Program-made: the position numbers and the translations under genes
Notes under the pieces: model-generated
Told to the model about the DNA's origin: nothing
Seen by the model: the letters and a program-made list of their open reading frames with translations, nothing else
Database searches by the model: none
Assembly (NCBI GenBank): GCA_905178155.1
Contig: CAJINV010000014.1
Span: 902,116-966,115 of the forward strand
DNA: 64,000 nucleotides
DNA from: Amoebophrya sp. A120
Taxonomy: Eukaryota > Protista > Dinoflagellata
Direction of reading: 5' to 3'
Part shown: piece after piece, positions 9,439-53,719 of the stretch
How the letters are laid out: every line of letters starts with the position of its first letter
How positions within the stretch are numbered: the first letter of the stretch is position 1

Positions 9439-12400
9439 TTACTCTAGAAGACACTTCCTAGCTGCATCGCAAGTCTTTCTATCCAGCCATCTTCCCATGC
9501 AAAAGAACTCGCCTGTTGTCCGGCCATTGACGTAGTACGCTACTTTTGCCTTGGGTAGTGCAGTATCGATCGCAAATCCGGCTGGGTTTGGAAATTTGTA
9601 TTGCTGTACTTCCGTTGCAAACTGATCGCACGTACGGCATAACGGCATGAGAAGTTTTCCTCAGCAGCTTCTGGCGCATTCATTCCTGAATAAGTAGCAT
9701 GACAAAGTTGCGCCTTCCCGCACGACCCTATCCACGCACACAGTAGATCTGGTTATCACGACGCGAGTCTTGCATCACACACCCAAACCCAGATATGTTT
9801 GCATATGCAGTTATTTTGGCAGTTGTAGACGGAAAAGACGTCGTCAGACACCTGGTACTTGAACTATGGTATGCGGTTGGAAAAAGTATTTGTCATGCAG
9901 AGCTAGCACGGTGGAGAAGGAGAACCTGCATCGTGCGAGCTCTGCATGACAAACTCTCTTTTAAGCCCGTACCTTCGTCCTTCAACTTGTCCAGGATGAG
10001 TCCTGCGCTATAGCAAGAAAAAAACTGCGCTTGTGTGACTTTGGTTTGTGTTTGTGATGCGGGACAAATAAGCAACCCGCATGTTGCATTTGTCATGCTA
10101 GTCCTAGTGGACAACCTTGATAGTAGCTTCGCCTCATCGTCAGATGAAACTGCTTCCTGCACTAGCAGCTCCGCAAGACAAATTTAGGTTTTTTCTGTCA
10201 AGACCGGCTGAATTTGCGATGCTGTCAGTCCAAGGAATTCGAATTCACCCTAACGCAGTTTTTTCTTCTGGATATTCGTCCGAGGGCTTGTATTGCGTTA
10301 TTCGCATGTCGATGTACCTTCATTTTCATTTCGGATAAGTACTTGGACACACTTACTCGTTGCAAATAATAAATGAATCCAGCGTGAGTAATAGGTTTTT
10401 TTTCTCATGCGCGTTATCATACGATGGCCATATCGTATGCAAAAATCCTGGTAGTTTTAAACCATAACAGCACCTCTGCGTCTGCGTGGCGGCGTCTGGC
10501 ACCCTGGCACAGCCGTTCATTTTCATCTGGGGCGTCGCGTTTTCGTTGTAGGCCCCTGCGATTCCGGTCTCTATCCGCACGTTGTACCCCAGCTGGCAGA
10601 GCAACGATTGCTCCAGGTTTTTCTTCAAGTAGTAGGCTAGCCGCTCCTCGTTGCCGCACGTCACATCAGTGTACTGGTAACAGGTATGCATTGCAGATAC
10701 GTCTGGGTCTGGCAAACAAGAATTGATTGCCATGCTAATGATCCATGGATGACGAATTTTTGTGCAGTTCTGTCGTGCGTTAAGGCGCATGAGGCTGCAT
10801 AAAGGTGGAGCAGTGCTATTCCGAGACATGCGACGCAAAATTGCACTGCAGTATGGTGCAAGTTTAGCGTCACAAGTCATGCCCATATAAGAGGTCTGGA
10901 ACACAAGCAAAGCATTACAGGTTTTGCGAAGCCGAAGGCCTCTTAATGCCGACCCCGCATACAGAAAAATTCGCAATTTGTGTAGCGAAAAGCAGGCAGC
11001 ACTCTGCACTCATGCAATACAGATTTTTCATTGTTCGGTCGAGATTTCGCATCGCAAGTTGGAACTCTACTTCCAGACCCGGACATAGTTCTACAAGGCG
11101 TAACAAGTCTGAATAAACCACGTCCCCACCACCGAACCGAGTGCCGCACCCCCACCGCCGGTAGCTCCTAGGACGCCCCGCGTATCCACTGCAAATATCA
11201 TGTCTGTGTCTGGAACAAAGGTCGTTGCACTTGCAATGCTTGTCTTGCGCATGGTCGGGAAAATAAATGGGGAAAAAAATTGTCGTGCACGGCTGCAATG
11301 AGAAATACTTACTTATCTACTCAATTATGGTCCGCAAGTCGGCGTCACAGGAGGTTTCCAGACCACGTCTCGGGATTATTATATTTGCAGTGGATACTGC
11401 GACGCCCACAACGAAACCGGCAACGAAGGTAACGTCGACTCCCCCGCGTCCTGGCCGAAGCCCGAAACCGGGCACCCGCCCGTGCAGTTGTGCGTCAAGG
11501 GGAGATACCAGTCTTCGAAAACATTCACCTGCGGCCCGTTCTGGAGCTGTTTCGCGTTGTAGAAGGAATAAGACGCGCATGGAAGGAGAATAAAGAGTGT
11601 GTCTTCATCGTGTATCTTTCCAGTTTTGATTCATACTCGGCGCACAGCATTACAACACTGTTTGGCAGGAAAGCGAAATAAACGCGCCGGAGCGGCAACG
11701 GACCCTGCAACCAATACCTGATCAGCATGAATGAATTATGTAGCAACGTCCCTCGACGAGCCTCGTCAGGCAGCCGATCGCTCATCCCCCGACGTACGTC
11801 GCCAGCCTACCAGCATGATAGACGCAACTGTCTTGCATACTTCGCATCACAGACCTACAGATAGTAACACACCAGTTTCTTTCTGCATACCGTGCGCTGT
11901 CGAACGAGACCAGTAACGGACGACGCCTTTAGTTCCAGGCGCTATCGCGAGAAAAAACTGTCGCGGTATCTCTGGTGTCATGCTCGACATGCAAGAACAT
12001 CAAAAAGGGGCCTGTAATCATTATCTGTAAAAAGGACTATGTGTTTTCTCTTTTTGCTCCTGCTTGGACCATCCACTTCCTTATACAGAGAGTTTTCTCT
12101 ATCCTGCTTCGAGAATCATTTGTGTAGCTGAGTCTGCAGAGTACGCTTGAGTTTGAGACAGTTTTTTTCCCGGGATAGAGGTTTCTCTTCCTGCAGTTGC
12201 AGCGTCATCACCTGCTGCAGTAAAGACTCGGGAGTGAGAATTGCCTCGAGCTCACGGCTATGCATCGCAACCACATCAGAGTCTGGAGGGAAGGGTGGAT
12301 GAACTACTTGTGAGGTAGATGCTTGTCGTGCATTCCTGCACCGTCCCTCCTGCATCACTAGCAAAAGCGTAGCTTTAACAAATACTCCTTGTCGTGTGGT

Positions 12401-14230
12401 CATGAGCACTGTGTGTACAGGAAAACAACCTGAAAACTTCTCATGCTCAGCTGATGCACTTGGAAAAGTTTCAAATGCCTTCAGTTCACTTAGCGTTATT
12501 CCAGGATTTTCCAGACAAATGATTTATTGCATTTGATAACGGTACTGGGAATCAGAATCAAGACCGCCGAAAAAAACTGTATGCAAGAAAAATGCCGTCT
12601 CAGTGTAAGTAACTTTGTGTTGCAGACACTGCAAATCATGCTCGACATGCATCATAAGGATGCGAGTGTGTTTTCACTCATGATCCATCTGCGAAGCGCA
12701 GATATATTTGTGATGCTGTTTCTCAAAGAGGGTTACACTAAGGCACTTTTTTTCCGGCATAAACTGGCACAGATATAAACTCTCCGTCGCAGAAGTTTGG
12801 GCCTGACAAATCAATAAGTAGAATCTTAATCTTTGCGCAAGTATTCGGCATGTGATAAAAACTAAATGGTCGACCATCTTCATACATCATGTACCCTACA
12901 CTGGGGGAGGTGGGCATGCAGAGCGCCCTATCTCTCCAGTCACCTGGACCTGGCAGCGCTTTCTTTGAAGCAACACAGCGACCGTGGTTAGTTATTAACA
13001 TTCACATTTTTTGTACTCGACAACTAAACGAGGAAAATGAACTTGCTCATCACGTGTAAGTAAGTACCGACGCCAAGATCGATGTCGATCCGCTTTCCCA
13101 CGCTCGTCGCTTATTGTAAGGGAAAATTTCCCCTCCACATAATTGAAAATGTATCGATCCGGATCCGCGCGACGCAGATATGCGCGCACGAGTTACGTCC
13201 CCATTGCAAGAAGGCAAAGCCAGAGAGTGCGCCGCGTCACCCAGGCGATTGGTAATGCTGTAAGGCCTACGGGGCAGCCGACCTCTGGCATGCTAAGTGC
13301 CTACACCACAACATCCCTGCCCAGGCTTAGAATCTGCATGCCGTCCCCTGCTGCAAGACAAACCTGACTTGTGCACACAAATCTCCCATCACAGATTTCC
13401 ATTTGAATATGGGGAGAAGGAATTTTTCACTTTGATATTGTTGCCAGCAGTTTCATGGCTGCAGAATTCAGCAACTTTTCAACTTTCCCGCTCTCGCACA
13501 GGCCCAATTTCTCGCTCACGGACATGTCAGACGCACCCATGATGGTGTAGTTGTATTACAGTGAAAAATGCCCCCACCACCAACGTTGCAAAAATTTGTG
13601 ATGCGAGGTTTCCAAATGAAAACTTTTTGTCATGCATGAAAGGAGTATGTTGAATCTTTCTGATGCAGAGTCTAGGCGTGCATCGCATCGCTTGCATGAC
13701 AAGCGACGCTCTTACTGGGGTCTTTTGCAATGCAAATTTTTGCTATTCACGATTGGAAACCTGTGATGCTGATAGATGCAAGAGAGCGAATGTTTCATTT
13801 GGAAAGGTTTGCATATACAAGTGCTCCCAAGTTCGTGGGTGGGGGCATTTTTCATTGTAATAAGTTGCCCCACAGCTTCAAAACCTTCGCCTGACTGCAC
13901 CTATGCATTGCAAATACGTCTGGGTCCGTGATGCCAGAGAAATGGAAATGTGTGCGAACGAGACCTGTATTGCATGAAGAGGACTGGCCAGGCGCTTTTG
14001 CGGCCGTGGTGGAAGGCAGTTTCCTTTCTTCATGCGATTATACTAACTAGTATACGAACGAATGTGCAAGAAACCTAGGAAATGAACTTGCCACACCGTA
14101 CTGCCGTCCGAAGATACGACCACTGCGTCATGCAAGAATACTCAGCAACACAAATCCCATACACATTTGCATCTGGTAGCACCAGTCGTTCGTCAACCTT
14201 TTCGGCTTCGAGCAGCACTGCCGTGTCCTG
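9439..14230 (-). CDS. Multi-exon hypothetical gene(s); structure only partly resolved
   Basis: Removing introners yields continuous peptides such as LWASQ|GVLGATGGGGAALGSVVGTWFIQTC|YQYTDVTCGNEERLAYY, SQYR|ELEAILTPESLLQQ and NDWC|SQAKVLKLWGN|YTIMGASD. No family recognised and boundaries are approximate. Confidence 0.4.
9564..9805. mobile_element. Introner, family A (degenerate)
   Basis: Diverged TIRs; perfect TGCAG DR. Confidence 0.75.
10685..11102. mobile_element. Introner, family A (long, degenerate)
   Basis: TATGCATTGCAGATACGTCTGGGTCTGG...TTCCAGACCCGGACAT; DR ACAGG/ACAAG. Confidence 0.7.
11183..11396. mobile_element. Introner, family H (TIR TATCCACTGCAAAT)
   Basis: TATCCACTGCAAATAT...ATATTTGCAGTGGATA; DR CCGCG/CTGCG. 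Confidence 0.8.
11943..12177. mobile_element. Introner, family E-like
   Basis: TATCGCGAGAAAAAACTGTC...GACAGTTTTTTTCCCGGGATA; DR diverged. Confidence 0.65.
12259..12538. mobile_element. Introner, family A (degenerate)
   Basis: Diverged TIRs; DR ACGGC/ACGGT. Confidence 0.7.
13112..13437. mobile_element. Introner, family D (degenerate)
   Basis: TATTGTAAGGGAAAATTTCCCCTCCACATA...TATGGGGAGAAGGAATTTTTCACTTTGATA; DR TCGCT/TTGTT. Confidence 0.75.
13554..13862. mobile_element. Introner, family C (TIR TATTACAGTGAAAAATGCCCCCACC)
   Basis: Near-perfect TIRs; perfect AGTTG DR; similar along its length to 30185-30490. Confidence 0.95.
13902..14178. mobile_element. Introner, family A (degenerate)
   Basis: Perfect GCACC DR; right TIR eroded. 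Confidence 0.75.
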
Positions 14231-14759: not shown

Positions 14760-16994
14760 CTACTTATTATTGGAAACAATGAAACGCTCTGTGTGTCTCT
14801 CATGCTGATCATGCAAGACAGAAAATCCAGAGTTGAAGCGCTTGAGATTGTAAGTACGAACACCTGGGCCGCGGGTGATACTTTTTACGTAGGACTTCTG
14901 CGCCGTCGCTGCGGCCTTGGCTTTCGCCGGAATGACAAACGTTTTGTCGGAAACTTGCACAGGCGAAGTCACCATGTCGCCGGGAACAACATTCAGGGCT
15001 GGAGACGTAGGTATGTGAAGTTGCATTCTTGATTTTAGTGCATCGTGTCTAGGTTGTGGTAGCATTGACATAGAAAACTTATGTGTAAAAATTTCATAAA
15101 TCTCCTCGTTTGAAAATCAAAATAACCTGATCGATATACGAAAAATACCATGTAGTGCCGCCGTAATCTTCCGAGCGAACTCCGGCGCTTGAAATCGTGC
15201 AAAAGATCATAATGAAAAGCGCCCCACCAGCAGAAGACCAAACGGTTGAGATTGCATACGCCCTCCCACATCACAGAAAATCTTTTGTGTTGCAAGAAAC
15301 GAATCATGCGCCGCGTTTTTATTCCGAATCCAAGCAGGCTGGGTTATGCAGCGCCAACATGACAGACGTCGCCTATACTGCGGCGGCGCGTAACGTAGAC
15401 CTTCGCTTCCCTGGCTTGAAGATTTGTCGTGCTGATACGTGCGAGGTGCCAAACGCTTTCACTGAGAACGAATGCAACACAACAACTTCCACACTCTGGG
15501 CGGGTGGAGACACTTTTCAAAATGATATGGAGGATCCGTTTACCAGTGCGTTCTTCCCACCCACGGAGACGGAAATTGCGTACCCTTCATCGTTATCCAT
15601 TACGAATATGTCTGGGTCTACCAGGATGCAGCTTGTCATGCGATAATTCCGTTCAGTATCACCAAGCCTGCACGGGCTACTATGCAACGGGTATAACATC
15701 TGTGTAGCATGAACCCCAAATAAGCTTCCGCATGTCCTGCGGGATAGGCATTGGGAAAGTTTCGCAGAATCTGTGATGCTTCTTTGTCTATTCCTGAACA
15801 TGCGCGTAGTCCTCGATGTGAACGTATGGCAAGACTTGTATTCTTCCAGACCCGGACATGTACGTTTGCAGTTGATAGTCGTAGGGTCTCTTGGTTACCT
15901 CCGCCTTGACGACCGGCGGTTTCGCTTGCTTGGGGCTGACTTTTACCAGCTCCTCCCGAAAAACTTCTTCCACGCGAGCTGTGATCACATTTTCTGCCGT
16001 CGAGGTCGGGGTAGCGGCGGCGGCCGCTGCAGCTGGTGCGGCGCTCCCAGTATGCCTTGCAAGTGTGCCGACGTCCTGCGAAGTTCATGGAACACCAAGA
16101 AGGATCTGTATCGCGAGACCGAGGTGGGTCGCGCTGTATTTATCCAGCTGCATACAGACACTTTGCCGTGCGGAATAGAGTTGGCTCTGTCGCGAGGATC
16201 TTCATGCTCTGAAAACTACTTATAAACACCGGAAGTACTGATATCCTTTTCCATCCTTGCAAACTAAGACGGCACATTTCTTGCATTTCATACCCGGGAG
16301 TGGAAGAGCCGGCTGAAGAAGCGCCCGTCGGAACAGCAGCACCACTAGTGCTCCCTCCTGCCGCTGGTGTGGCCGCCGGTTGCTTTTGCAAAAGCTCCGT
16401 CGCAGATACCATAAACTCGAACCGTTGCCTGTCAAGTGCAAAAATGTCTGGGTCTGGAAAAATGCCAGACTTGTCATGCAGGTTTTCCATGACCCATGAG
16501 GTCTCGAATGCGAGATCCAGCATGACAGATTCTTTGAGGTCTCTATCATGCCTTTCCTGCATGAGAAACTCCCTCTCAACTTGATCAAAAGCGGACAGCT
16601 TCTGGCACTCACGCAACACAGATTTTTGCATCATTCAGATTTAGCAAGGCAAGTTCTAATCTTCCAGACCCAGACATTTTTACATTTGATATTGCCTGTC
16701 ACTGGACGAGTCCTCTTGACCACCCGCATCCTCCGAGAGCGTAAGGCCTGTGCTGGTCTCCGAAGTTAGTAGTTGGATCCCGCTCACAAGACTCGGTAAA
16801 ACGCACCATCCTGCTGCTGTCCGGCCGCGGAGCCTCGTGCGTCCAGTGCTTGTGGTCGCTCCGCGCCCTTGTAGGAGGACCTCGCACGGTGAAAGACGCA
16901 CCATCCCTGTTACAGTACAGCGTCGAAGATAACAATGGCGAGATGGATTATTCGGCGAAAGAGGCGGCCTTAGCTCGCTGTCCCGCGCTACCAA
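14760..16994 (-). CDS. Multi-exon hypothetical gene (may continue into the 9439-14230 gene)
   Basis: Introner removal joins SSSDRQ|RFEFMVSATELLQK and TKRPYD|EGYAISVSVGGK; boundaries approximate. Confidence 0.4.
15594..15877. mobile_element. Introner, family A (degenerate)
   Basis: A-type TIRs; DR ATCGT/GTCGT. Confidence 0.8.
16430..16691. mobile_element. Introner, family A (subfamily shared with 51845 and 56072, opposite orientation)
   Basis: Clear TIRs; perfect TTGCC DR. Confidence 0.95.
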
Positions 16995-24251: not shown

Positions 24252-25850
24252 CTAGTACCCATCCGTACACCTCAACATTGACGTAGCCCTACTCATCCAC
24301 CGGTCCTCGCCGTCGCACCACTTCGTGTACCTCTCCCACGCACCTTTCGCCTCCGTCGCGCCAATCTGACCGGTGCGGATCCACCAGAGGTGCTGCTGCC
24401 GAGTAACTGAGGTGTACTTCTCCCGCCAAGCCGGGTACCCGCTAGCGAAGTTTCCTCGCAAGTGCTCTTTGTCCGCGGCGACCAGATCGTTGACGACCGT
24501 TTCAGAGTGCGATGGAGAGCACAGGTTGCACGACGAGCACGAGAAAAGACTTCCCGGCTCGTATGCGTCCCCTTCTATCGAGACGGGATCGTCCGAACCA
24601 CCTCCAGGCTCAGGTATGGAGGAACGCCCATGACTTTTGTTAAGTACCCATCTCCCGCACGTAGCTTTGGGATTAGCTATCAAGCTTTTGGGATAAACTT
24701 CCCAAAAAGCATTATAAGAGTAGAGAGCAGATAGCTTTGATCACTTATCAAAACTTTTGCCAAAACTTGTTGCTCGCTTATCGAAACTTTAAAGAGATTT
24801 CTGTTCCAAAAAGCTTGATCACTTATCAAGCTTTTATTAGAGTGAGGTATCTATCTCAAAGTTCAAGCTGTGCGAAACGGATACGTAATAAAAGTATGGG
24901 CCCTTCCCTCATACGTGGGGGCCGTGTAGCGATGAAAGACGAGGCCGCCGGAGAGGACGTCTTGGTGGCGTCGCAGAACTTTTTCGCATCTTCGTCTCCC
25001 AACAGACGCAGTTGGTGTTTCTTGAGTATGCACTCCATGGCACAAGCTTCCTGGAATAAGTATATAATTTGAATCGATGCTGCCAATCTGCCGGCAATTT
25101 ATCATCATCATCATTTATAATCATTTGTCTTGCCACCTATCTAACGAAGATGGACCACAGCACTAAGCACGAAAGTGTCGAAGCAAAAAGATGGATTACG
25201 CTAAGTAGGGCCAAAGCAGGAAAGTAGGGAAGTACCTCTTGCGTCTTGATGACCAATTTGTCCAGCATGTCCGAAAACGCCTGCACTGTTGGAGACTTGT
25301 ACGCGGCTCCTATTCTGTGCAAAACCGTCGTCGGTCCATCACTACAACGGAAAATCTATCACGCAGATCAGAATGCTCGAGTGCGAGCCATTTTCGGTCC
25401 AAAGCTTGGCTTTAAATGACTTAAACCCCCATGCGCTTCCCGGCTCGGGCGTGACACTTTTCCAGCAATGGCTTAAAATGGCTTCAGCGAAGCAGGGGCG
25501 AGACGTCAGACAAACACCTCGAGCGCATGCAAAGCCAACATCTCCTGGTGGATATGTACTTACGAAGTATTTTCGCACAGGATAACGCGCAGCCAGCTAG
25601 GCGCTCCGCCGGCACACGGGCCCTTTGTCGTGGTGACCGTGTCCGTCGCGGTGTCCGTGGCGGTGTCCGTGACCGTGTCCGTCGCGGTATTCGTCGCGGT
25701 GTCCACGGCGATGTTCGCCGCGGTGTCCGTGCTCTCTTGCTTGGGGACGTCCACAAAGGACAACGGTGTGGCGGGGGGCACCTTTGGCGCCTCGCCCTCA
25801 AACTCAGAGTATGCTGTGGAACCACGTCCCCATCCAAAATAGCCAAGCAA
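24252..25850 (-). CDS. Possible multi-exon hypothetical gene with a DTAT-repeat region
   Basis: GC3-rich minus-strand segments at 24252-24630, 24900-25050 and 25560-25850; junctions not established. Confidence 0.3.
24675..24836. repeat. Cluster of TATCRARCTTT(T)-like motifs with a perfect hairpin
   Basis: Four direct copies near 24677, 24746, 24778 and 24823; stem AAAAGCTTGAT-cactt-ATCAAGCTTTT at 24809-24835. Confidence 0.7.
25632..25731 (-). repeat. 12-bp coding tandem repeat (DTAT/NTAT/DTVT)
   Basis: About 8 imperfect GTGTCCGTSGCG units. Confidence 0.85.
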
Positions 25851-30124: not shown

Positions 30125-33100
30125 CTATTTCGCTGGCCCTTGTTTGTGCGCCAAAGACAAATACTCGCTCTTCATTACGTAATATATTACAGTGAAAAGT
30201 GCCCCCCACCCCCAAAGTTGCAAAATTTTGTGATGCGAAGTTTCCAAATAAAACCTTTTTGTCATGCATGAAAGGAATATGAATCTTTCTGATGCAGATT
30301 CTAGTGTTGTTTCGCATCGCTTGTATGACAAGCACCGCTCTTACTGGGATCTTTTGCAATACAAATTTTTGCTATTCACGATCGGAAATCTGTGATGCTG
30401 GTACATGCAAGAGGGCGAATGTTTCATTTGGAAAGGATTGCAATACAAATGCTTTCAAGTTCGGGGGTGGGGGCATTTTTCATTGTAATATAATAGCTGT
30501 GCTGTTCTCGCCATATCGGGTACACCTCCTCATTGTCCTTCCACCGCAGATATCAAATGTAAAAATGTCTGGGTCTGGAAGAATGCAACTTGTGATGCTG
30601 AATTTGGATTCCAAAAAAATCTGTATTGCATGAGCAGCAAAGGGAGTGTAATTTTTGCTACGCGGGGGGCATTTGTCATGCGGAATAGGCATCGCGAGGC
30701 CCTCAAAAAATCTGTGATGCTAGGGCATGCATCACAGACATCATGGCCCAGGCAAAACATGCATGACAAGTCTCAGAATCTTCCAGACCCAGACATTTTT
30801 ACAGTTGATAGCAAAAAAAGTGGCAGCGAGAAGTCGTCACTCCGCAGCGGTTCCTCGATCTTCTTGTCTCCCAACACCACGTGCCACATAAACTCTGTTC
30901 TGTGAAAAAACGTCCCCACGACCCCAGAGCAGGCAAGATGGGGTTGATGTGGCTACACCAATCAACAAGCTTAGCTTTGTCTTCTGTGTCGCGCATGACA
31001 AGTTTGTGTTGTAATCCTGCGTAGCTAGCGCAGCCGCATCAGAAATCGTCCTCCATCCACTTAAATATCCAGACTTTAGCATGACAGCCTCCCAAGCAGC
31101 ATTGGACATACTCTACTCGTCATGTGACTGCGCATGCAAAAGCGAAACATTTCGGCATGCGAATTTGCATGACAGCCCTGGGATGAGGACGACATTTTTC
31201 CACCGGATAAACTCCAACGAGTAGCAGTAGCTCAGCCTCTGCCCCTTGTACTTCTCGTAGGTGGGACCAATCCGCTGGCAGAGGTCTGGGATCGAACCGT
31301 CAACGATCTGCTGCAGCCGCTCCATCCGAGCTTGCGGAATGTTGTGAATCAGTTTCCTTATGCATTGCAAATGTGTTTGGGTCTGAAAAGGTTCCGCCTG
31401 TATAATTCCGCGTCTCGCATTTCTGACAAATCTGTATTGCATAAGAAACAAATAAAGCGCCACCCCTTCGCCATGCAAAGTCGCACTTTCTTTGTAGTGA
31501 CGCACACTACGCATGCGAAAGCGTTTGAAAAGAAATTTGCCATGCGTCCCTAGACAACTTGAAGGCGCACTCAATCGTTTTGACAACTGAACAGTACTAC
31601 GACAGGTTTCCCGACCCCGACATGTTTGCAGTTGCACTCCATATGCTTCTTACTGATCATAAACTGCGCACAGCAGTAGGTCTCGAGCAGTTGCCGTCTC
31701 GTTTTCTCGACGGTAAGAGACTCGCCCATGATATAGTTGAAAACCTGGTCCTGGCATGGTGTGGACACCTATCCCAGAAAAAAACGCAGGCAGGGCAGAT
31801 TTGTAATGCATGTAATGCAAAAATAAGTTTACGGAGAAAAATCTGCCATGGGCGAGCTCATATAGCATGCTCTTTGGGATATTCTTTTTTTGCGTTTGCG
31901 TACTCATTTTTGCATAACAAATTGCCCCGCCTGCTTTTTCCCGGGTGATAACACCGCGACCAGACGGGGGGTGGAGAGATGCAGGAAGTTGACTTATGCT
32001 GAGTAAAAACGTCCCCACCTCAGACTTCTTATGCAGGTTTCGCTGTCTACCGGCACATGTGTAATGCGCATGCCCATGAAAGTCGTTTCTCATCGTGTTT
32101 TGGCATTTGTATCGATAATGCGGTAAACAGGATAAGCAGATGGATTTGTGCTGTGGCTGCCCTAGCTAATTACCTGCACCACTTACACTACGCACTGCAA
32201 CTTGTCACGCGCGGCGACTCCCAAAACTAGGTTCTTTGTGTTGCCAGGTGCCCGACTTAGCTCTGGACAGGGAACGTTTTTTCCCCAGGATATGACTTCC
32301 TCGTTGTTTATGTTTTCCCCCAGCCGCCCGGACTCCATGCTGGCCAGGATTAAGTTTAAGTAATGGTACTGGAACTGCCCCCAGTGGGAGATCGGGTCGG
32401 CGTGCAAAAAAAACGTGAAGTCACCGATGGGTCCTGTAGTTGCAGCATCCGGTGCTCCTGCTGGCGCTTCAGTAGCAGAAGAAGCACCGCCGCTATTGCT
32501 TCCGCCAGAACCACGTCGGTCAGACCCGGTATAATTCGCGACTCCTTCCAAGGAGGTGGGAGTTCCATCACTCGCGCTCCTGGCGGCTGCTGCAGCGACG
32601 GCGTTCGCAACGTCCGGCCCAGCCGATTGTCCGTTCGTTTCGATAAACCGATCGATCGACTGTTTATCTGTGATGCCCAGTTCCTCCAAATTTTGTTGCT
32701 GTGCGAACCGGAGAGTCTTATGCAGTGCAAAAGTAGTGTCGTAGCTGCATAGCAGTTGCAGTAACATTGAAAATTGCAATTCATCTGTCTCCGCAGTACG
32801 ACAAAACATCTCTAGCGCTCGTGGTTACGGTATGGAGACGGGTAGTGATCTACAAAGATGCCTATACTCATTTTTATGCTGCAACTAGAGCGAGTATAGC
32901 AGTCCGACATTATTTGCACTTTGCGTAAATGTCCTCGTGGAGCAGGTGCTTATTCTCCCAGAGGTATTTCTGCCGTTCGTAGGCACTGGTTTTCTCGGTT
33001 GTTTTATCAAATGCAAAAATGTCTGGGTCTGGAAGATTTCTAGATTTGTCATGCATATTTTCCATGACCCGTGATGTCTGTGATGCATGCCGTAGCATAA

Positions 33101-36072
33101 CAGATTCTTAGAGCGCTTCCTCATGCCTATTCCGCATGACAAATGCCATCTCCGCGGAACACAAAATCTACTCCTCTTACTGGTCACGCAATACAAATAT
33201 TTCTGGAATCCAGAGACAGCATCACTAGTTTAGAATCTTCCAGACCCAGACATTTTTGCATTTGATATGTTTTCACCCCGGACAGCCTCCGCACGCCCAG
33301 CACATGTGCCGTGTACGCCGAACATTCGTCTCTCCGGGTCTGCTTTTGGATCACTTGGTCGGCTTATGGGAGTGCCCACCTCCCACCTCCCGCTCCATTA
33401 CCATTTCATATCATGGAAAAAAGCATAATCCGCTCCTTGCCTTCTCCTACCACATCTTCACATTGCGTGTCACACTCTTTTTGAAAATCACGACCTAAGC
33501 GGTACTGCGTACATTCCAGGAAGAGATGTATTTGCAAAACCTGCATTGTAGTGGCTGGCGCGGCTCAAGGTGCTGCTGTTGCAGAGCTGCTAGAGAGAAC
33601 GTCGCTACAAATACATTCATTATGCGGGGAATGGCGACGGGTCGTGCACTTTCATAAGTCTTCGTCTGCGATGTTGATCACGTGCAGTTCTTGCAGGTTC
33701 TCCGTAAAGAAGTTCACCATGGCGGCTTCCGCGTTTAGCTCCTGTTGTTCCCCCGTCGCTTTATCTTCCTCCTGCGGCACACCCTGCACTGTCGTTTCTC
33801 CCTGCACGACATGCCCTTCCACCGTCGTTGCAGCCGTTGTCGCAACTCCTTGCAGATGAGATGTTGACAAAGGAACAGCACGACCTATTGCCGTGTCTGT
33901 GATGTTGTAGTGCTTGGCGAGGATTTGTTTTATGTCTAATCTCGTGCCAGAAGTTCCGGTCTTCGTGAACATGTGCGTCCTTATTTCTCCTTCGACCACT
34001 GCAGCTTCTCCCGCCTCCCCTTTAACACCTCCACTCACATCCCGTCTTTCGCCACTAGGGCCGGGACCTGATGATCCGGCCAACGGTGTTTCATCATGAG
34101 GTAGTTGAAGTTCATCACCGTTGAGTTCTTGCAACAGCTTCTTATTTCCGTTGTAAAAACTCCCCACCGCATCCGCGTTGGCGCCGCACTTTTCGTAGAT
34201 GAACAGGCGCGTTTTCCGCAGTACGTTCAGTGGCCAGGAAACCTTCTTTGGCAGCCACGAAAGATCGAACTCGCGGCAGTGCACGATAACAAAATCAGCG
34301 GATTGGGCGATGGTGGAAGAAGGAGGACGAGACGTGTGCTCGTCTAAGACATTTTCTTCCACTGCCGGTTTCCTTGTGACCGCGTCAAATTGGTCCCGAA
34401 CGCTGATGAAGTAATCGTGCGCCTCGTGAACGGGCCAGCTGTCCAGGGCGACCTGCTGGTGGACGTCGGTCAGTTTGTTGGACAGCATGTCCAGAGCCAC
34501 CGTGAAGTACATGCTTGCCCGGTCGGGGTTGGTGTACAGGCTCGTGGTCGCGATCAGAAACGCCGCGACCACCATCCCCCCCGGGCAGCTGAAAATCAGC
34601 TCGTCCCGGTACTCCGCGGGGAGACCGAGCAAAAACCAGGCCTGCTTCAAGGGCGGCCGCGCGGTCTTCTGGCGGTAGAAGCTCCAGGCGCGCAGCTGGA
34701 AATGCGGGCAGGAAAAGAGGTTGGTATGGAAGCGTCAGGTTTGAAATCGACAAAGTTGAAATGAATTGTCATGCAGAAAATGGATGAAAGTTGCAACCCA
34801 GTTGCCAAGTGGCGCATCACAAATTCGGGTAGAGCCGAAATCCAGTGTGTCATGCTGTTTGGGTAAGGAAGACGCCTTTTGTCATGCTACTCTAGCAGCT
34901 CTATTTCTACCCCGAAACAGGCTTACAATCTGCCCCTTTTGCCTACTCTGCAAGACAGACACTTTCTGCGTTGCATTTTATGCATGACAAACTATCTCAA
35001 CTTTGACGATTTCAAACCTGACAGTTCCATAGTTGGTGTGGCAAACGTTGTCCGGTGTGCAGTACTATCAAGTGTAAAAATGTCTGGGTATGGAAGAATC
35101 CAAATTGTGATGCTGCATTTGGATTCCAAAAAAATCTGTATTGCATGAGTACCAAAGGGAATAGAATTCTTGCTACGCGGAGAGGGCATTTGTCACGCAG
35201 AACAGGCATCAAGAAGCTCTCAAAAAATCTGTGCTGCTCGGGCATGCATCACAGACATCAGGGCTCATCCAAAACGTGCATGACAAGTGTCAGAATCTTC
35301 CAGACCCAGACATTTTTACATTTGATAAGTACTCCAGTTTGAATTCCGAGGGGTACGTCGCCTGCGCGGACGCAAACAGGAGGTTCCTCTTTCTGGTGCG
35401 CGGCTTTGCTGTAGTAGTTCTACTACTTGGAGGTTTTGGCACGACCACGCTCTGTAATTGTTCCCCTTCTTTCGGAAGTTCGTGTCGCGTCGTGCAGGTA
35501 GTTTGCGTCTGCTCCCTCTTCGCGAGTGCTGGTGGCGGAGCAGCTTGGCCATCATCTGGTAGTTCCACCACCATCTCGCGACGTAGTTCATCAACATGTG
35601 CTCGCGGCGCAGCAGTGGTAGTACAGGAACTCTCTGGCAGTGGTGTAGCGCCAGTAGCCGCGGAAGTTGCAAAAACACGTCGATCTCTGGTGTTATACTT
35701 CGTCCAACCCCACGGCAAGACCTGTTGGCGCACGGCAGGTCGTCTTGTGTTGCTGCACACGGTGGCTCGAGTAACCCCTCCAGAGTGTCGACCATCGGAG
35801 GTCGGGTAGAAATTGATGTCCAGGTTAGGAACATTCGGTTTCCGCTCCACGAGCAGCTCCTGGGTCTTCAAGAGCAGGGAAGAATGCCAAAAAACCGTGG
35901 CTGCTGTTCTCTTACGGCATCCTAATCCAAATGCTGTTTCTGTGGTTTCTGAAACACACAAAGAAGAAGAAAAGAAATTCGTGTCAGACAAAAAAACGCT
36001 GGAAAAATCATAAAAAAGTAATTCCGCTATTGCGAATAGCAACAGTGAGTAGCGAGGAGGTTGCGCGAACAT
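30125..36072 (-). CDS. DUF3431-like protein with an N-terminal signal/anchor; at least 11 introns (9 introners)
   Basis: Spliced motifs VIVHCREFDLSWL, LFIYEKCG, RRDECSAY, FTFFLHADP, YCCAQFMISK and SLEF|MWHVVLG follow the DUF3431 pattern. ATG at 36072, stop at 30125. Confidence 0.75.
30185..30490. mobile_element. Introner, family C
   Basis: Perfect TAATA DR; removal gives HSYY|VMKSEY. Confidence 0.95.
30551..30810. mobile_element. Introner, family A
   Basis: DR GCAGA/GCAAA; removal gives PLFL|RWKDNEE. Confidence 0.95.
30896..31209. mobile_element. Introner, family B-like
   Basis: Perfect AACTC DR; removal gives SLEF|MWHV. Confidence 0.85.
31359..31643. mobile_element. Introner, family A (degenerate)
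   Basis: DR TTCCT/TGCTT; frame restored. Confidence 0.8.
31770..31950. mobile_element. Introner, family E-like
   Basis: TATCCCAGAAAAAAACGCAGGC...GCCTGCTTTTTCCCGGGTGATA; perfect ACACC DR. Confidence 0.85.
31995..32292. mobile_element. Introner, family B
   Basis: Perfect TGACT DR; removal gives EEV|NFLHLS. Confidence 0.9.
33005..33267. mobile_element. Introner, family A (inverted relative to 30551 and 35066)
   Basis: Perfect TIRs of about 30 bp; perfect TGTTT DR. Confidence 0.95.
34725..35031. mobile_element. Introner, family G (TIR TATGGAA..GTCAGGTTTGAAATCG.CAAAGTTGA)
   Basis: About 35-bp TIR; perfect GTTGG DR; removal gives CHTN|LFSCP. Confidence 0.9.
35066..35327. mobile_element. Introner, family A
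   Basis: Perfect AGTAC DR; removal gives LEY|CTPDN. Confidence 0.95.
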
Positions 36073-36752: not shown

Positions 36753-39700
36753 TTAATTGCCATCAAATGTTCTATGGCCATAGTTCGTTCCACCGCCACC
36801 TCTGTTCCCATAGCGATTCCCCCCACCACCACCCTTGTGCCCGCCGTAGCCTCCTCCTTTGAAGTTGTTCCCACGGTGATTGTTGTTTTTGTTCCTTGGG
36901 TAATTGTTTTGATGCCCGCCATTCCCGCCGGGACCCCGGTCGTAGTTGCGATTGTGTCCTCCGCCCCGGGGAGGAGGAGGACCACCACCTCCGTGCATAT
37001 TCATCCTGTCCTGCCGCAAGCTCGCATCCCAATCGGAGGGCGGCGCCACAAACCTATCGTCTGTTGGAGGTAGTCCACCGCCACCTCGGGAGGACGATGG
37101 TCCGGATCCTCCCATATTACCAGCGTAGTTGTTTCTTTCTGCATGTGAAGACGGTGGTCCTCTTGAATTGTAGCTGTTTCGCCCCTCGCCGTAGTTGCTC
37201 TGGTTCATCAGAAATTCTCCTCTGCCACCGCCATAGGTTCCCTGGTGGTGGTCGCCACCACGATGGTGGTGGTCCCCCTTGTGAGAAGAGGCAGAAGGAC
37301 CACCGCCGCCACCGGAAAAACGGTTGTTTCGGTTCATGTTCATCGGAGGCGGCGGTGGTCCACCAGGGCCGCCACCCGTAGCACCCATCATCGCGCCGGA
37401 TGAAGAACTGCTTCCCGCTCCCATCGGCGGGGGTGGACCGGCCATGCCCATGGGCGGCCCGGCCGGGGGCATCACGGGGGGCGGCATAGCGGCCGGCGGC
37501 ATCTTTTTCTCCAGCGGCTTGGGCGCGCCCCAGAGCCGCTTCGGCGCCGTGGAGGGAGGTTCAACATCCGGAGCAGCAGGTGGTTGCTCGCTCTTCTTTG
37601 GTGGAATTCCGGACACAGCTGCTGCTGTTTTCTTGTTCGTCTCCAACTCCGGACTGGAACCGGACGACGCGGTTTGGGAATTCTCCCGCTTCAGTGCGGC
37701 CCACGGCGCGGAGTCGAACGAGGGAGCCGCTGGTGCACTGGGCTTCGTACTAGTACTCGCCTGCTCTTTATTGGTCGCAGCAGCGGCGGTGACAGATGGA
37801 CCAGGGGCAGTTAGTGGCGCGGAAGTTGTCGTAGAGGCTCCTCCTACCCCTGCTGGTGGAGCCTTTGGTTGCAACGGAGCGGCAGCGACCGGTGCTGATG
37901 TCGATACAGGGGGTGCTGATACTACTACACCACCTGCAGCTGCTACACTTGAGGAGGATGTTGAAGGTGCCCCCGCATTCACAATTCCACCTCCTGCTGA
38001 TGCGCCGGAGGAAGGAAAGGATGGGAAAGTAGACGTTGACGTGGTCGAAGAAGGCATGCCGGGCTTCGGAACGGCGGTTGGCAGCGTCGACGACGTCGCA
38101 CCAGCTCCACTGCTGCCGAGTTGGGAAGTAGATTGCACTGGGACTCCAACACCGGGCTGGGAAGCGGTTGCACCGGCTGTCGTCTTCACACTGCCTCCCG
38201 CGGTAATGGTCGTGATGTTCGATCCGGCAGGGAAAGGAGTCGACGTGGCGCCGCTCGACGACAACATCGCGGCTTTCGCCTTCGCCTGTTCCTGCTCCCG
38301 CTTCAAAAAAGCCGCATTCGCCTGGTTGTTCCCAGCCGCGAGGACCTGCTCCACCGGCTGGCTCGGGGAAGAAGCAGCAGCAGCGCCCGCTGCACTTCCA
38401 GCGTTTTTCGGTGGCTGGTCGCTTTGCAGCTGCGCAGTTGCACCACCACCTTTCGGGCCCGCGAGGAAATTGTTCTCCTTATCGCCTGTAGGTGGCGCGG
38501 TTGATGGTTTTCCGGGATAAAAGTCTTTTCCGTGATGGAAATGCTCCTTGCCGTCCTTCTTTCCGAAAAACTTTCCAAAGTCTTTCATACCCGCTTTGTC
38601 TTTGCCGAAGTTTTCTTTTTGAAATGGATCAAAACCGTGCTTCTTCCCATACCCGCCCTTATAGCCACCGTATCCGTACTTTCCCTTCATCTCCTGATAC
38701 GGACCAGAAGCACCGCCTTTGTGATGCGCAGCCCCGTACTGGTCGTGATACTTTCCCCCGCCAGGATCCTTCCCATAGTATTCGCCATGCGGATAAGGTT
38801 GACCCTTTTCGCCCTTCATCTGCTGCTGCTGTTCGCGGTGGGCGCGCTCCCGCATCGCGCTGTACTCCTCTTCATCGGAATCCGCTTCCCCCATGTTGAA
38901 AAAGCTTCCCGCCTTCGACACTGCCGGCATCGGTTTTTTCTTTTTCTTCTCCTCCTCGACGGAGGTGGTAGAGGATGTCGGTTTAGCTGGACCATCTCCG
39001 GGTGGATGTTGCGATGGACGAGAAGGACCATCAGCAGCAGCACTAGCAGCTGCTTCGTCTCCCGTGGCAGGAGCTGCAGCTCCTGCGGCATTTGTTGCTG
39101 CAGCAGGTGTAAGTCCCGCTCCTGGCTGTACAGTTCCCGCCTTTGCCGGTACGGGCTTGTGCTGCGTCTCAGTCGCGTGGCTGTTCATCCCGGGAAAACT
39201 GGAAGAGCTTGCAGCTAGTACCTCCCCTGCAGGTGCGGACGTTGAACTGGCGAGGACTACATTACTGGCCTGATCAGCAACTCTCGTCGCGCCACCGTCC
39301 GCAACTCCCTCTGGATGTTGACCTCCGCCGGTAGTTGGTCTTGTGCTTACCCCCGCCGCCGCCGCCGGCGCGCTGCTCGAGGCCATCCCCAGCGCTTGTC
39401 CAATCGTCGCTGCAGCTCCAACCGGAGGTGGAGGTTTTGTGTAGTGGTCCATCGTGCTACTTCCAGCACTGTCCGCCACGACGAGATTGCCGCTCAACAA
39501 AGCAGCAGCACCACCGGCCCCCGCGGGTAGAAGGAGTCCGTCGGAGGTACCAGCAGAAGTTCCTGTTCCCTCGTGGTCCAAGAGGAGCTTTTCCTGCTTC
39601 AGAATCATTTCTTCCAGATTGTCCGGCAGATTCTGGTCGGTATCGTTCTTGTCGATAAATTGGTCCCCCTGCTCGCCCGCGTCCTCGGGAAGCATACGCT

Positions 39701-42700
39701 CCTCCATGTCCTCGTCCGCCCGGTTTGTCTGCTGGTTTCCAAACTCGTCTTTCCGCTCCTCTTCCCGCAGAACCCGCTGCATCTCGTATCAAATGCAAAA
39801 GTGTCTGGGACTGGAAGGATGCAACTTGTGATGCTGCATTTGGATTCCAAAAAAATCTGTATTGCAGCAGCAGCGAAGGGAGTGCAATTTTTGCTACGCA
39901 GAGAGGGCATTTGTCATGCGGAATAGGCATCAAGAAGCACTCAAAAAATCTGTGACGCTAGGGCATGCATCACAAACGTCATGGCTCATGCAAAAGGGGC
40001 ATGACAGGCAGACACTTTTGCAATTGATATCTCGCGCTCGCGCTCGACGGACTTCGGCCGCAGAATCTCGATCACCGGGTCGGACCCAAGTAGCTTGCCG
40101 CCACTGATCAGGTTTATTTGAAGTAGATGGGGAGTTGTTCATGAATACTATCTGTCATGGGGGCTTCTTGAGAAAAAGAGATCAAGACACAGGCTCTAAG
40201 CATGGCCTTTACTTGTCGCACACTATAATGGATGTCAAACTGCTGGTGAATCTTCAATCTAGTACTTGGAACCAAACATGTACATCAAAAAAAATTTGTT
40301 CTCCATACCGAAAATTCCTCCGTTTCGGCCAAACGTCTTCCCGGTCATTGCCCTCGAAGTAGCTCGCGTACGTTTTCGGTGCCCACGTGGACGTGGTGAT
40401 CGCGTTGCCGAGGGTGACCCACCCGTCCCGGAGGTTGTTGTCGGTGCCGAAGAGCTCCAGTCTTCTCCTCCCAAGGCAAAAGTGCTCAATGATTTCGTAC
40501 AGTTCGTGCGGCTTCTCAGTACTCCCAAACAGCTCCGGCTCTTCCGCAATAATCACGTCCGTGTCAATGTTCGCATGGATAAAATTCGTGTCCACCGAAC
40601 GCCGGACGGTACCTACAAAAACGTTATTCTGTCGTACACGTAAGTAACTTGCGCGTCACGACACCACCGACCAATGGGGCGGCGCTTCGCTCTGGATCAA
40701 AATAACCATATCTGAACCATCAAAATCTGTAGGCTGCTATACCTTTGATTCCCATCAAACAGTGTTCCTTCGTGCGGAACAGGTAACTGTCGTTTATCCA
40801 AGAAAAAAACATTGTAGGTGTAACTTTTTTGATTTTGGAGGAACAGCATTACAAATTTGTCTGGCATGACAGCAAAAACCTGTCATGCGCAGATAGTACA
40901 TGAAAACGCCCTTTAATGGGCCCTACGATGCATGCCAAGCATGACAGACGCAATCATCTTGCATGTTGCACATCACAAATTTACACTAACAACGTTTTTT
41001 TCTTGGATATCGTTGTCCAAGAAGTTCGTGTTCCGCCTGTCCACGTACTCCTCGGGGTTCATGTCCCGCCAGGTGCGGTTGGTTTTGATCCAACACAGAT
41101 CCTCGATCCGGCGCAGCCCCCACTTGTTGAACAGCGCCCGCCCCTCCTCGAGGTGCGTTTCGCCGACCCAGAGAAACACAAACGACCGGTCGGACAGCAC
41201 TTCGTCGAGTTTCAGGCTCGCGATCTCCGAAAAGGTCCAGGGCGTGAGGTCCTCGCCAAACACGTCCAAACCCCCGGTGCGATAGTTGTACTCGGACCAC
41301 GGTTATTGCCTGCAAATATCGATCTGGGTCTGGAAGTTGTAGTCATGATTGGCAGAGTTTATTTTTGTCTTGCAGATAATCTTAGTACATGTTGACCCGC
41401 GATGTCATTGACGCATGCTGTAGCGTCAACGAGGTTCTTTCGCGAAATGGGCTTGAAATTCAAATTCTTGACGCGGCTATTCATGCAAAAATACAGGTTT
41501 ACTTTTGTTTGATGGAAATTTAGCGTCACATCCAGTTCCATTCTTATTCTTCCCAGACCCAGACATTACATTTGCAACGCATCATAACGGCGGATCGATG
41601 ATAACCGTGTCGAACTTCACGTCCAGGGACTTCAAGGAAAACTCCTTCAAATCACACTTGAGGGCCATGGCGGGCGTCGCGCGGTACTTGATGATCTGGT
41701 CCTTCAACTTGACCACCCTTTCCAGCTTCCGGTAGTCCTCGTACCGGGAAGAGAGATCCATGTCGTGAATGAAATTCTGGGGTCGCAACCCCGTGTCCAC
41801 GAAGACTTGGCAGTAGTCGTTCCGCAGAACCTCCTCGGTGACGTTTCCCGGGTCGATTTTTGGGGACTGGAGCGGGGGCGGGTTGGACTGCGGGGGCAGT
41901 TGCTGTTGTTGTCCAACAGGAGGTGCACCGGGGTTCATGTAGGTCTGCGGTGGCGGATTCGCTTGACCAGCACCACCACCTGGCTGCGCCGTTGTATTTG
42001 CGGAAGCTGTCGTGGCACTAGTACCGTTAGTAGTGTTATGTGGAAGCAAAACCGGAAAGGTCGACGTCGCAGTGCTAGGCTGGTGGTGCGCGAACCCCAC
42101 TACAGCACCCTCGGGTTGCAGCGTAGAACCAGCGGGGCCAGGCGGACCCCCCGCGCCGAAAACAAGCGGTGGGGACGAGCCGGCGTTTTCTCCGGACGGG
42201 GGCAGAATGAGGTTTGGGGAGCTGTATTGGAGGTTCCTATTTTTGTGCTGCCGACTCGACGAAACATCTGCCCCCGGGTGGGTTTGCGATTTGGATGGGT
42301 AGGTCTTACTTTTTTCTTTACGGTGGCTGGCATGCTTGTCTCGGTCAGCATTGTTCCTCCGCTCCGACCGCTGCCGGTGATCGCCACGCTCTGTTGTATT
42401 TTCAGTATGTGTCTTTGTGCGTACGGAACATGATGATGCAATATAGGAGAATGAGAATGAAGCAGACTTCTGAAAGACCGACAGTAGAGCCGGTGTTGAT
42501 CAAGAATTTGCTCTGCATACAAAGAAAAACGAGCTCACTGCTGTTGTTGTTCTCAGCCAATGTTCAATTAGAAGATTTCTACTGTTGGAACGTCAACTTT
42601 GGAGGATCACACGAACAAAGTGAACCACCAAATGGGGACTTCCGCGATCAGTGTACCACGAGTTTCCCGCGTTACCTCGCACAAAAGATAGCAAGAAACG

Positions 42701-51200: not shown

Positions 51201-53719
51201 CTTTTTCGACACCGCGCGAATTGGTTTCTCCGGAATCAGGCACGCGGACCCGAAATCCGCGATTTTTAGCAGGCCGTCCTTGTGTAGCAGTAAATTTGAG
51301 GGCTTCAAATCCCTGTGCATCACCTTCCGATTCACGTGCAGCTCTTGCAGTCCATTCAACAGTTGGAACGTCAAGCGTTTCACTTGGGATTCGGACAGTT
51401 TGACACCTTCCGGGGTCCTTGTCGGGTGCATTGGTGGTGATGTACAAGTTATGCATTGCAAAAGTATCGCAGTAGTAGTATCAATCGCATCACAAAAGAA
51501 GCTCATCTCAGAAGAAACAATAGAATTTGCAAAAATGCTGACTTACGACCTAAGGCTAAGATCACAATTTTGCCATGCATAACTGCAAGATGAATTCAAG
51601 TACTCAGTAGGGGTAGTACAACGACACTTTATTTGCACAGGATACTACAACTCCCCAAGTTGCTGAAGATTTCCCCCGGCGCGTTCAGGACCTGGTAGAG
51701 ATCCATTTCGCAGAATTCGTACACGAGGTAGTAGCACGGCTGCTGCGGACTGCGGAAATGCGACAACATTTTCACGATATTGGGGTGCTGATTCATCTCT
51801 CCTTCCACGTGTTTCAGCATGGGATTCAAGTTGCTGCCGAAGATTATGGATTGTAAAAATGTCTGGGTCTGGAAGATTGCAACTTGTCATGCTAAATCCG
51901 AATCATGCGGAAATCTGTGTTGCATGAGTGCCAAAAGCTGTACCCTTTTGACCAAGTTGAGAGGGAGTTTCTCACGCAGGAAAGGCATGATAGAGACCTC
52001 AAAGAATCTGTCATGCTGGGTCTCGTATTCCAGACCTCATGGGTCATGGAAAAGCTGCATGACAAATCGCGCATTCTTCCAGACCCAGACATTTTTACAC
52101 TTGATAAAGATCTGGCTCGTGCAATCCAACACGTTGTGGATGAACATATCCTCCTCGTTATCATTTGCAAAAACGTCCCCACCCCGTAGTTGTAATGCAA
52201 TTCTGCATGCTGAAGATGTTTCTCATGCGGAGTTCCATGCGAAGCATTTTCTAGCTGTGTTTCGGAATTTGTCATGCTCCAATCAGCATGATGTGCTGGA
52301 TCTGTGATGCTCGTAAAGTAGCTAAATACGATTACACTACGAGACCAAATCTCTCATGCGCAACAGCCAAGCCCTGTGGATTTGTCTAGCAGATTGCCCA
52401 TCTTGACTATGGGGTGGGGACGTTTTTTTACACAGGATACTCATTGTTCCCACGACCAGTTGCACCACCCCCACCCAAGGGGCTGCACTGCGGTACCATG
52501 ATAGCGCCGGCGCCCAGGTACTCTTCCAGTGTCAGATTCAGATTTTCCAACTCCATCCGTGCGCCTTCATACACGACCTGCTGCGTTCTGGCGTTGAAGA
52601 AACTCGCGTCGGCGCTGGCGCCGCAGAAAAACTGCCGCTGCTCGTTGTCCGCGACGGCGAGCTGGCTTCTTCTGGATGAAGATGACGACAACTCCGGGTT
52701 GTAGTTCTTGGCACCAGAAGTACTATTTCTGTAAGACCCGCTGCCATTGTTTCGCGAGGAAGATGGGCTGCTGTTTTTTTCGCCCGACGGATTTTTATGC
52801 TGATCTCTGTGGTCACCAGAATGAAGACTCTCAGTTGTACTACTGGAGGAGCTCGAGTTCCGCTGGCTACCGCTTGTGCAATACAAATTTGCCGTACACA
52901 AAATAGACAAGCCTCCAACGCGTTTACAAGTAACAAACTCCGTCAACCTAAATAATTCGATATGGCTGCGAGAAGTTTCTTTTTGTCGTGCAGCGATTGC
53001 ATATGCATTTGTAGTTGTGCATGGTCGTGTACGGCAACAGATTTGCAGTGGATACCGTTTGCGGTGGTGCTCGAAGCTGTCGAACTGTCACCCGTCACGC
53101 CCGAAGATGATCCCACGACCCCGAATAGCAACTCGTCCGCGTTTGTTTGCGATTTCACCGCTGCGGGGTCGTAGAACTCTAGCTCACGGAGAATCGATTT
53201 CGTCCAGGCGTCCGTGGCTTCCAGCACAATTCGACCCGTCACTGGGCAGAGTATGAATGGCAAAAAATGATCTCGGTCTCGTCTCGTTCATGCGAAACTT
53301 GTAGTAGGTGTAGAGCCAGATCTACTGTGAAGATGCATTTTTGCCACCAGCTTTTTTGTCGTGCTCAAGTCAAAAAATGCGACCTTTTCATCAATCAGTA
53401 CGAATGGAGATGAACCTGCAACTGCACACAAATAAGCCCTCCCATGCTGCTACTTAGTTCTAGGCCGTACAATAAATAACGCTCTACTACTAGCATTGTG
53501 CAACAATCAGACCAGCAAGTCTTGCTGGTCTGATTGTTGCAATCGACCTTTCATCCAGACTGAGATCATTTTTTTGCATTTGATACACACGCGCCGCGCG
53601 CAATCCCGGTAGTACACTTCCTTGATGGCCACGTAATCCTGCGTGTCCTTCGTAACCGCCTTCGACACCGAGCCGAACCGGCCCTCGCTGATGTGACCGA
53701 CGTGCTCGTAACGATGCAT
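48241..53719 (-). CDS. CDK-family Ser/Thr kinase, CDK20/CCRK-like, with large insertions; 7 introner introns
   Basis: [65 protein letters not shown] and [15 protein letters not shown]. All 7 junctions are in frame. Confidence 0.88.
49471..49792. mobile_element. Introner, family D (TIR TATCGWAAGGAAAAATCCCCCCTCCCCATAT)
   Basis: Perfect ATATC DR; removal gives QFIDI|PAPP. Confidence 0.95.
50354..50620. mobile_element. Introner, family E-like
   Basis: TATGCAAGGAAAAAAGTG...CACTTTTTTCTTTGCATA; DR CTGCT/CCGCT. Confidence 0.88.
51450..51647. mobile_element. Introner, family F (degenerate)
   Basis: Left TIR TATGCATTGCAAAAGTATCG; DR CAAGT/CAACT; removal gives LGSC|TSPP. Confidence 0.7.
51845..52106. 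mobile_element. Introner, family A
   Basis: Perfect AAGAT DR. Confidence 0.95.
52159..52439. mobile_element. Introner, family B
   Basis: AAAAACGTCCCCACCCC...GGGGTGGGGACGTTTTT; DR CTCGT/CTCAT. Confidence 0.88.
52875..53054. mobile_element. Introner, family H-like
   Basis: TTGCCGTACAC/GTGTACGGCAA inverted pair; DR CCGCT/CCGTT. Confidence 0.8.
53252..53585. mobile_element. Introner, family A (degenerate)
   Basis: DR CAGAG/CACAC; removal gives RRVC|PVTG. Confidence 0.75.

Follow-up and report, generated by a model that had tools for sequence, protein, structure and literature searches.

How can copies of one mobile element, lying in both orientations within a single gene, all be removed so that the reading frame survives? 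This question is raised by a stretch of 64,000 nucleotides from Amoebophrya sp. A120 (contig CAJINV010000014.1, positions 902,116 to 966,115; hereafter the window). An initial annotation, made from the letters alone, proposed that excision of the element is independent of orientation and must therefore depend on symmetric features, such as its terminal inverted repeats (TIRs) and two-way motifs, rather than on a strand-specific branch point or polypyrimidine tract in its interior. Taken alone, the occurrence of two orientations is ordinary, because both the class of element and introners that work in either orientation are already in print; what is new and testable is the rule by which the elements are cut out. 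The matter bears on a published open question, namely how Amoebophrya removes the more than 60% of its introns that lack GT-AG borders, the published view being that these borders vary.

Results

Three inverted-repeat copies interrupt a single gene as introns

The inversion seen in the initial annotation was confirmed with exact boundaries. The interiors of the copies at 30551-30810 and 35066-35327 lie on the strand opposite to that of the copy at 33005-33267: after the TIRs were trimmed, the 33005 interior matched the opposite strand of the 30551 copy at 80% identity over 194 nt (E 1e-45) and that of the 35066 copy at 79% over 180 nt. A second pair, 16430-16691 and 51845-52106, is likewise mutually inverted, with interiors matching on opposite strands (90% over 201 nt, E 2e-74). 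A scan with a 30-bp end motif detected 41 ends in the 64-kb window and placed a 30-bp TIR at both bounds of all five copies (30551/30810, 33005/33267, 35066/35327, 16430/16691 and 51845/52106). A profile of the end scored no hits when the window was shuffled. From each of the five, stop codons enter the incoming reading frame. Their hosts, the genes for proteins P0001, P0003 and P0004, are all on the minus strand, as had been annotated.

P0001 (A120, 971 aa), which has a weak, below-cut-off match to DUF3431, maps to the minus strand as 12 exons (36072..30128; gene at 30125..36072), and exon 33655-34722 matches part of it with 100% identity. Because these exons are arranged around the three copies, the copies are introns of one gene, and the homologue P0002 covers the flanking exons on both sides of each of them. 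Their sizes, target-site duplications (TSDs; identity given per five positions) and predicted introns are as follows: 30551..30810 is a 260-bp main-family element in orientation A (TSD 4/5, intron 30547-30811), 33005..33267 a 263-bp inverted one with a perfect 30-bp TIR (TSD 5/5, intron 33001-33268), and 35066..35327 a 262-bp one in orientation A (TSD 5/5, intron 35062-35328). All 11 introns of the gene are in fact elements, bounded by TAT...ATA-type ends and flanked by a 5-bp direct repeat, and the remaining eight share the build of the three named copies, most of them belonging to other TIR families; neither these eight nor the 5-bp duplication had been noted in the initial annotation. Five have a TSD of 5/5: 34725..35031, an other-family element separated from the 35066 copy by a 10-codon exon; 31995..32292; 31770..31950; 30896..31209; and 30185..30490, which has a 90% identical copy at 13554-13862. 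The other three have a TSD of 3/5, namely two older elements at 33365..33656 and 32719..32927 and a decayed main-family element in orientation A at 31359..31643.

Similar architectures were found in the other hosts. The gene for P0003 (8950..16904, minus strand; 23 mapped exons) contains 18 single elements, three GT-AG introns and one tandem pair, and its first intron is the inverted main-family element at 16430..16691, where an extended direct repeat also permits a GC-AG reading that leaves the mRNA unchanged. The main-family element at 51845..52106, in orientation A, is an intron of the CDK-like protein kinase gene encoding P0004. The gene for P0005 (54615..62626, minus strand; protein 100% identical to the window) has nine introns, all of them elements, with both main-family orientations represented. 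Together, the four deposited proteins define 49 annotated introns, comprising 45 single elements, three GT-AG introns and one tandem pair. A METTL14-like gene at 36756-42430 (minus strand) is interrupted by three elements and by two GT-AG introns; when its decayed element at 41304-41586 is taken out exactly, a conserved motif is restored, with W where human METTL14 has L. Elsewhere in the window, a 12-nt tandem repeat lies within a Thr/Asp/Ala-rich coding stretch (25627-25742), and a search of the 64 kb against Rfam gave no match.

Element anatomy and families

The TIR begins with TAT, seven variable nucleotides and AAA, and the exon/intron border falls within the 5-bp direct repeat. Since the three copies constitute three of the 11 introns of a gene whose deposited protein is from A120, they are published A120 introner elements. 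To extend the sample we used a related metagenome assembly (contigs JACKZZ01...), in which at least 136 stretches match the end motif; the 135 loci examined (490 kb) carry at least 349 similarly built elements, the best matches to the window copies being 83-97% identical, and none of these loci is orthologous to the window. Among the matches listed, and together with the window, 168 distinct main-family elements were recovered at unrelated sites, as a rule with non-GT-AG borders.

In these 168 elements the flanking repeat is 5 bp long, with 90-96% match at each position and only background at lengths of 3, 4, 6, 7 and 8; it is perfect in 139. Target sites in the window and the metagenome loci are random in composition, and selection for AG|G targets was accordingly rejected. 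In Tc1/mariner MITEs and TA-bounded ciliate IES, the target duplication is the TA dinucleotide. This type of duplication was also rejected for the present elements, in which TA lies within the TIR and the duplication consists of five random bases outside it. In being short, non-coding and numerous, with TIRs, a TSD of fixed length and insertion in either orientation, the elements have the features of MITEs.

Host strand was called in the metagenome loci from codon usage, by two measures that agreed in 102 of 106 cases and that called 13 of 14 cases in the window, all correctly as minus. A tally of orientation against host strand, which the initial annotation had proposed, gave 49:55 for the main family among the matches listed (p 0.62), that is, no bias; the ratio in the window is 8:7. 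Another family, F1, showed 7:17 among the listed matches in the metagenome loci. The two-way motif of the initial annotation, TGT(C/G)ATGC, is real, as 217 elements contain it 268 times in sense and 241 times in antisense, against two copies in 19.6 kb of exons, but both forms occur together in only 92 of the 217. It reaches 9.5 copies per kb in the elements, points inward from both ends and is nearly absent from exons and intergenic DNA, making it a candidate site for a transposase or a splicing factor.

Within the window and the 490 kb of loci, TIR pairs spaced 420-7500 bp from each other yielded no autonomous partner or transposase; the one candidate, of 2.5 kb (in locus L068), contains a 415-aa low-complexity frame that resembles a host exon. 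The end motif had no match in viral contigs.

A single cut register

Removal of the 11 elements of the P0001 gene, each together with 5 nt, yields a 971-aa protein, which is identical to P0001 only when four bases of the upstream TSD copy remain in the exons along with the final base of the downstream one. In this register, which we call register 4, the intron begins 1 nt ahead of the 5′ TIR and extends 4 nt past the 3′ TIR, read in the direction of the host gene. Across the four proteins, 19 of the 45 single-element junctions are informative, most of them supplied by the P0003 gene, and none excludes register 4; registers 0, 1, 2, 3 and 5 are excluded at 18, 15, 11, 6 and 5 of them, respectively. 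Under a null model of uniform register this outcome has a probability of about 4e-6, corrected for six registers. The first three proteins provided 36 junctions (the tandem pair being left out), of which 17 are informative and all 17 compatible with register 4. P0005, fetched after the first three proteins as a held-out test, added two informative junctions out of nine, and both were compatible with it. These counts refer to deposited gene models built from transcript alignments, with all informative hosts on one strand of one contig; only three junctions were checked residue by residue against a homologue, P0002 carrying the three diagnostic residues D613, I667 and Q861.

The three elements of the P0001 gene with a TSD of 3/5 each restrict the register: 33365..33656 permits registers 3-4 only, and 32719..32927 and 31359..31643 permit registers 4-5 only. 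Five junctions at which the TSD has decayed to 1-2/5 also keep the register-4 spacing. Opposite-orientation members of the same family allowed the direction of the cut to be determined: for the copies at 10274 and 11889 the register follows host direction and its mirror image does not fit, and the same holds for those at 33656 and 9233, although the family assignment of the 33656 element is weak (E 4e-4). This dependence on host direction points to removal from RNA. Excision is thus not symmetric as such, since the cut tracks the direction of the host gene.

It follows from register 4 that each intron consists of one base, the element and four further bases, and reads NT...NN. The 5′ dinucleotides of the 45 annotated introns are TT in 12, GT in 12, AT in 11 and CT in 10 cases, and only two end in AG, which departs from the GT/GC donor and AG acceptor of U2-type introns; among 99 elements, GT-AG occurs at register 4 in two and GY-AG is available at any register in eight. 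Thus, no particular base is required at +1, −1 or −2. We tentatively suggest that one splicing rule, with the first and last intron base free, could serve tens of thousands of A120 introns. In the portions of the deposited A120 family tables covered here, about 30% of introns have a 3′ AG (166/547 in fam16), compared with 2/45 in our set; the excess, which speaks against our reading, may stem from borders displaced within that repeat.

Several loci showed composite structures. At 56517-57112, a main-family element has a second element nested inside it (56560-56870, flanked by a perfect 5-bp duplication of its own), and the deposited model takes out both as one intron. At 9312-9805, the younger of two tandem elements is inserted into the upstream duplication of the older one, which implies a 1-nt exon unless the two are removed in sequence. 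On inspection by eye, register 4 suits the annotated residue at the older element (this junction is outside the 19 counted). A 418-bp composite element at 10685-11102 appears to be a degenerate nested pair. The 107-nt intron at 9866-9972 starts with GT, does not end with AG, has a TSD of 1/5 and still fits register 4, and possibly represents a late stage of element decay. The element at 2790-3060 is the only one with C instead of T at +2, a change tolerated in GC-AG introns; once excised, it leaves a 981-codon frame.

Mechanism of removal

We consider it about an even bet (probability roughly 0.5) that A120 introner elements are spread by a transposase acting in trans and removed from RNA at a fixed register; the machinery would probably be a U2-type spliceosome with relaxed requirements that recognizes the TIR itself. 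The TIRs, the fixed duplication and the random orientation suggest trans-acting transposase insertion: a DNA transposase would insert a non-coding TIR element into an exon in either orientation, duplicating 5 bp, and a later cut would remove the element with 5 nt, restoring the original exon. As the ends are mirror copies, either orientation would offer the same N-U-A-U start, U-tract and A at −7/−5. U(+2) would then play the part it has in a GU donor, a branch A within the 3′ TIR copy would set the distance to the 3′ cut, and neither G(+1) nor AG would still be needed.

The conservation of the ends is consistent with such a role for U(+2). T(+2) is kept in all 45 annotated introns and in all 217 metagenome elements, the element at 2790-3060 being an exception outside both sets, whereas its mirror position, A(−5), was lost nine times (sign test, p 0.02 including the one exception). 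A51 of U6 is the pairing partner of U(+2) in the yeast P complex, where G(+1) pairs with G(−1) (10.1101/212811), so that the two signals lost in A120 would be partners of each other. A(+3) and A(−7) are invariant in the window (45/45 each). Directional conservation of this pair was not borne out in the metagenome sample, where four and four deviations were counted in 217 elements (Fisher p 0.22); several of these exceptions resemble misplaced borders but were retained in the count. Because the window signal at A(−7) failed to replicate there, the branch A is a candidate only. In favour of a spliceosome, A120 is reported to retain U2, U4, U5 and U6 (PMC7789003), and the introns of Polarella class 12 and of Fritillaria, taken up in the Discussion, point the same way; against it, U1 went undetected in A120.

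These considerations modify the view that removal relies on symmetric ends and not on a strand-specific interior. Orientation-independent removal is supported to the extent that both orientations, which occur without bias in the main family, sit in coding frames that require the element to be taken out, and a strand-specific signal in the interior is indeed unneeded. Spliceosomal signals are nevertheless not excluded by this but relocated, because the inverted ends of 30-50 nt span the zone of the branch point and the U-tract.

A possible but somewhat doubtful alternative accepts the same elements and the same register and invokes spliceosome-independent, hairpin-guided cleavage and ligation, like that of euglenid nonconventional introns. 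The TIR stem would bring the exons together, and an enzyme would cut 1 nt before and 4 nt after the base of the stem. Young copies do form long stems in both orientations (−113.5 and −101.5 kcal/mol, z −9.8 and −7.8), and such a mechanism would agree with the freedom of the bases at +1, −1 and −2. The fixed stem offset, longer on the 3′ side, resembles that of Euglena, where the sections covered describe a motif at +3..+7 pairing with −9..−6 (PMC11170887), and U1 is reported as undetected in A120 (PMC7789003). A stem maintained by selection on RNA is, however, hard to reconcile with the balance of G-U and A-C pairs, 189 and 191 in the sense RNA at TIR positions 1-24 of 217 elements, which shows no G-U excess. 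Furthermore, the terminal TAT:ATA pairing has a probability below 0.1 in 12 of 35 annotated introns, including informative register-4 junctions, and constraint is stronger at T(+2) than at the base with which it would pair.

A further reading, which we regard as quite unlikely, is that the junctions are reverse-transcriptase template switches across the hairpin, or that the inverted copy uses a nearby GT-AG. A hairpin between direct repeats is a classic substrate for template switching. The flanking exons of the 33005 copy are both conserved, in different frames, and a frame-keeping 283-nt GT-AG intron is conceivable there, dropping five residues where P0002 cannot be aligned; this option is excluded only by the deposited model, and the 16430 copy can, as noted above, be read as GC-AG. 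At other sites, homologues require the exact junction: P0002 does so at 30551 and 35066, and P0006 is gap-free across 61584 and 58901, a pair of elements in opposite orientations whose interiors come from different subfamilies. In the METTL14-like gene, no GT/GC-AG choice within 22 nt preserves the conserved motif. Template switching is also difficult to reconcile with the register being kept where the TSD has largely decayed, and GT-AG use with the scarcity of GY-AG options. Excision from DNA, IES-like or by precise transposase action, would suit the TA-containing ends, TIRs, direct repeats and scarless removal and would make orientation independence natural, but it is highly improbable, since a symmetric cut predicts an element-tied register or a mixture of registers 1 and 4, whereas 15 of the 19 informative junctions exclude register 1 and family members in opposite orientations track host direction; moreover, we know of no second nuclear genome in Amoebophrya.

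Discussion

A single register makes exact predictions for donor, acceptor and branch positions, and allows decayed duplications to place intron borders genome-wide. It argues for an RNA-level process and against explanations at the level of DNA or of template switching, and it accounts for the invasion of exons by many unrelated TIR families at no coding cost. If true, any transposon with these ends that duplicates 5 bp would, wherever and whichever way round it inserts, become an intron that leaves no scar, and the host machinery, be it a spliceosome freed of G(+1) and AG or a new ruler enzyme, would be a universal transposon eraser.

The elements described here belong to the same genome as the introners of Farhat et al. 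2021 (PMC7789003), P0001, P0003 and P0004 being named A120, and they share the inverted-repeat motif TAT + 7 nt + AAA. The sections of that paper covered here give a mean length of 240 nt and direct repeats of 3-5 nt, with one example of a 5-bp repeat. In their account the position of the splice sites with respect to the hairpin varies (1-5 nt) and the border is unknown, whereas we find a single register; one sentence, placing 4 nt of the repeat upstream of the 5′ end, partly anticipates it. Those sections make no mention of element orientation or of a single register, and the text and supplementary passages covered from the Amoebophrya literature contained no statement of a single register or analysis of element orientation. 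Likewise, the 22 of 58 A120 rows considered from Gozashti et al. 2025 (PMC12130899) are mostly families labelled 'TIR DNA, unknown' of 150-340 bp, and the 5′ dinucleotides of the large families (about 27% GT, 14-20% AT and 45% other) are as NT starts predict. In that study, automated calling assigned TSDs of 2-5 nt and three different splice-site mechanisms, in contrast to the 5 bp and one register found here throughout.

In the portions covered of the study by Roy et al. (10.1101/2020.10.14.339549) on the introners of Polarella glacialis and Aureococcus, several classes make introns in either orientation, as in A120. Polarella class 12 uses the same register with a 5-nt TSD at NNAGG targets, the donor being formed by the last TSD base and the first element base. 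By contrast with A120, where targets are random and orientation unbiased, those introners need G and AG in the target and are biased in orientation. Euglenid nonconventional introns, as described in the parts of PMC11170887 and PMC11282704 covered, share ends other than GT-AG, pairing of the termini at a fixed offset, repeats resembling TSDs and a probable MITE origin; they differ in having a CAG/CTG motif and in the circles reported for them, and the TIRs of A120 lack a G-U excess. The TIR introners of Fritillaria borealis (10.1101/2025.08.15.670264) are also non-autonomous TIR transposons, and in the sections covered they form the majority intron class and need the U2-type spliceosome. Their splice dinucleotides lie within the TIR (AG-AC/AT), whereas in A120 the terminal bases of the intron are drawn from a random target.
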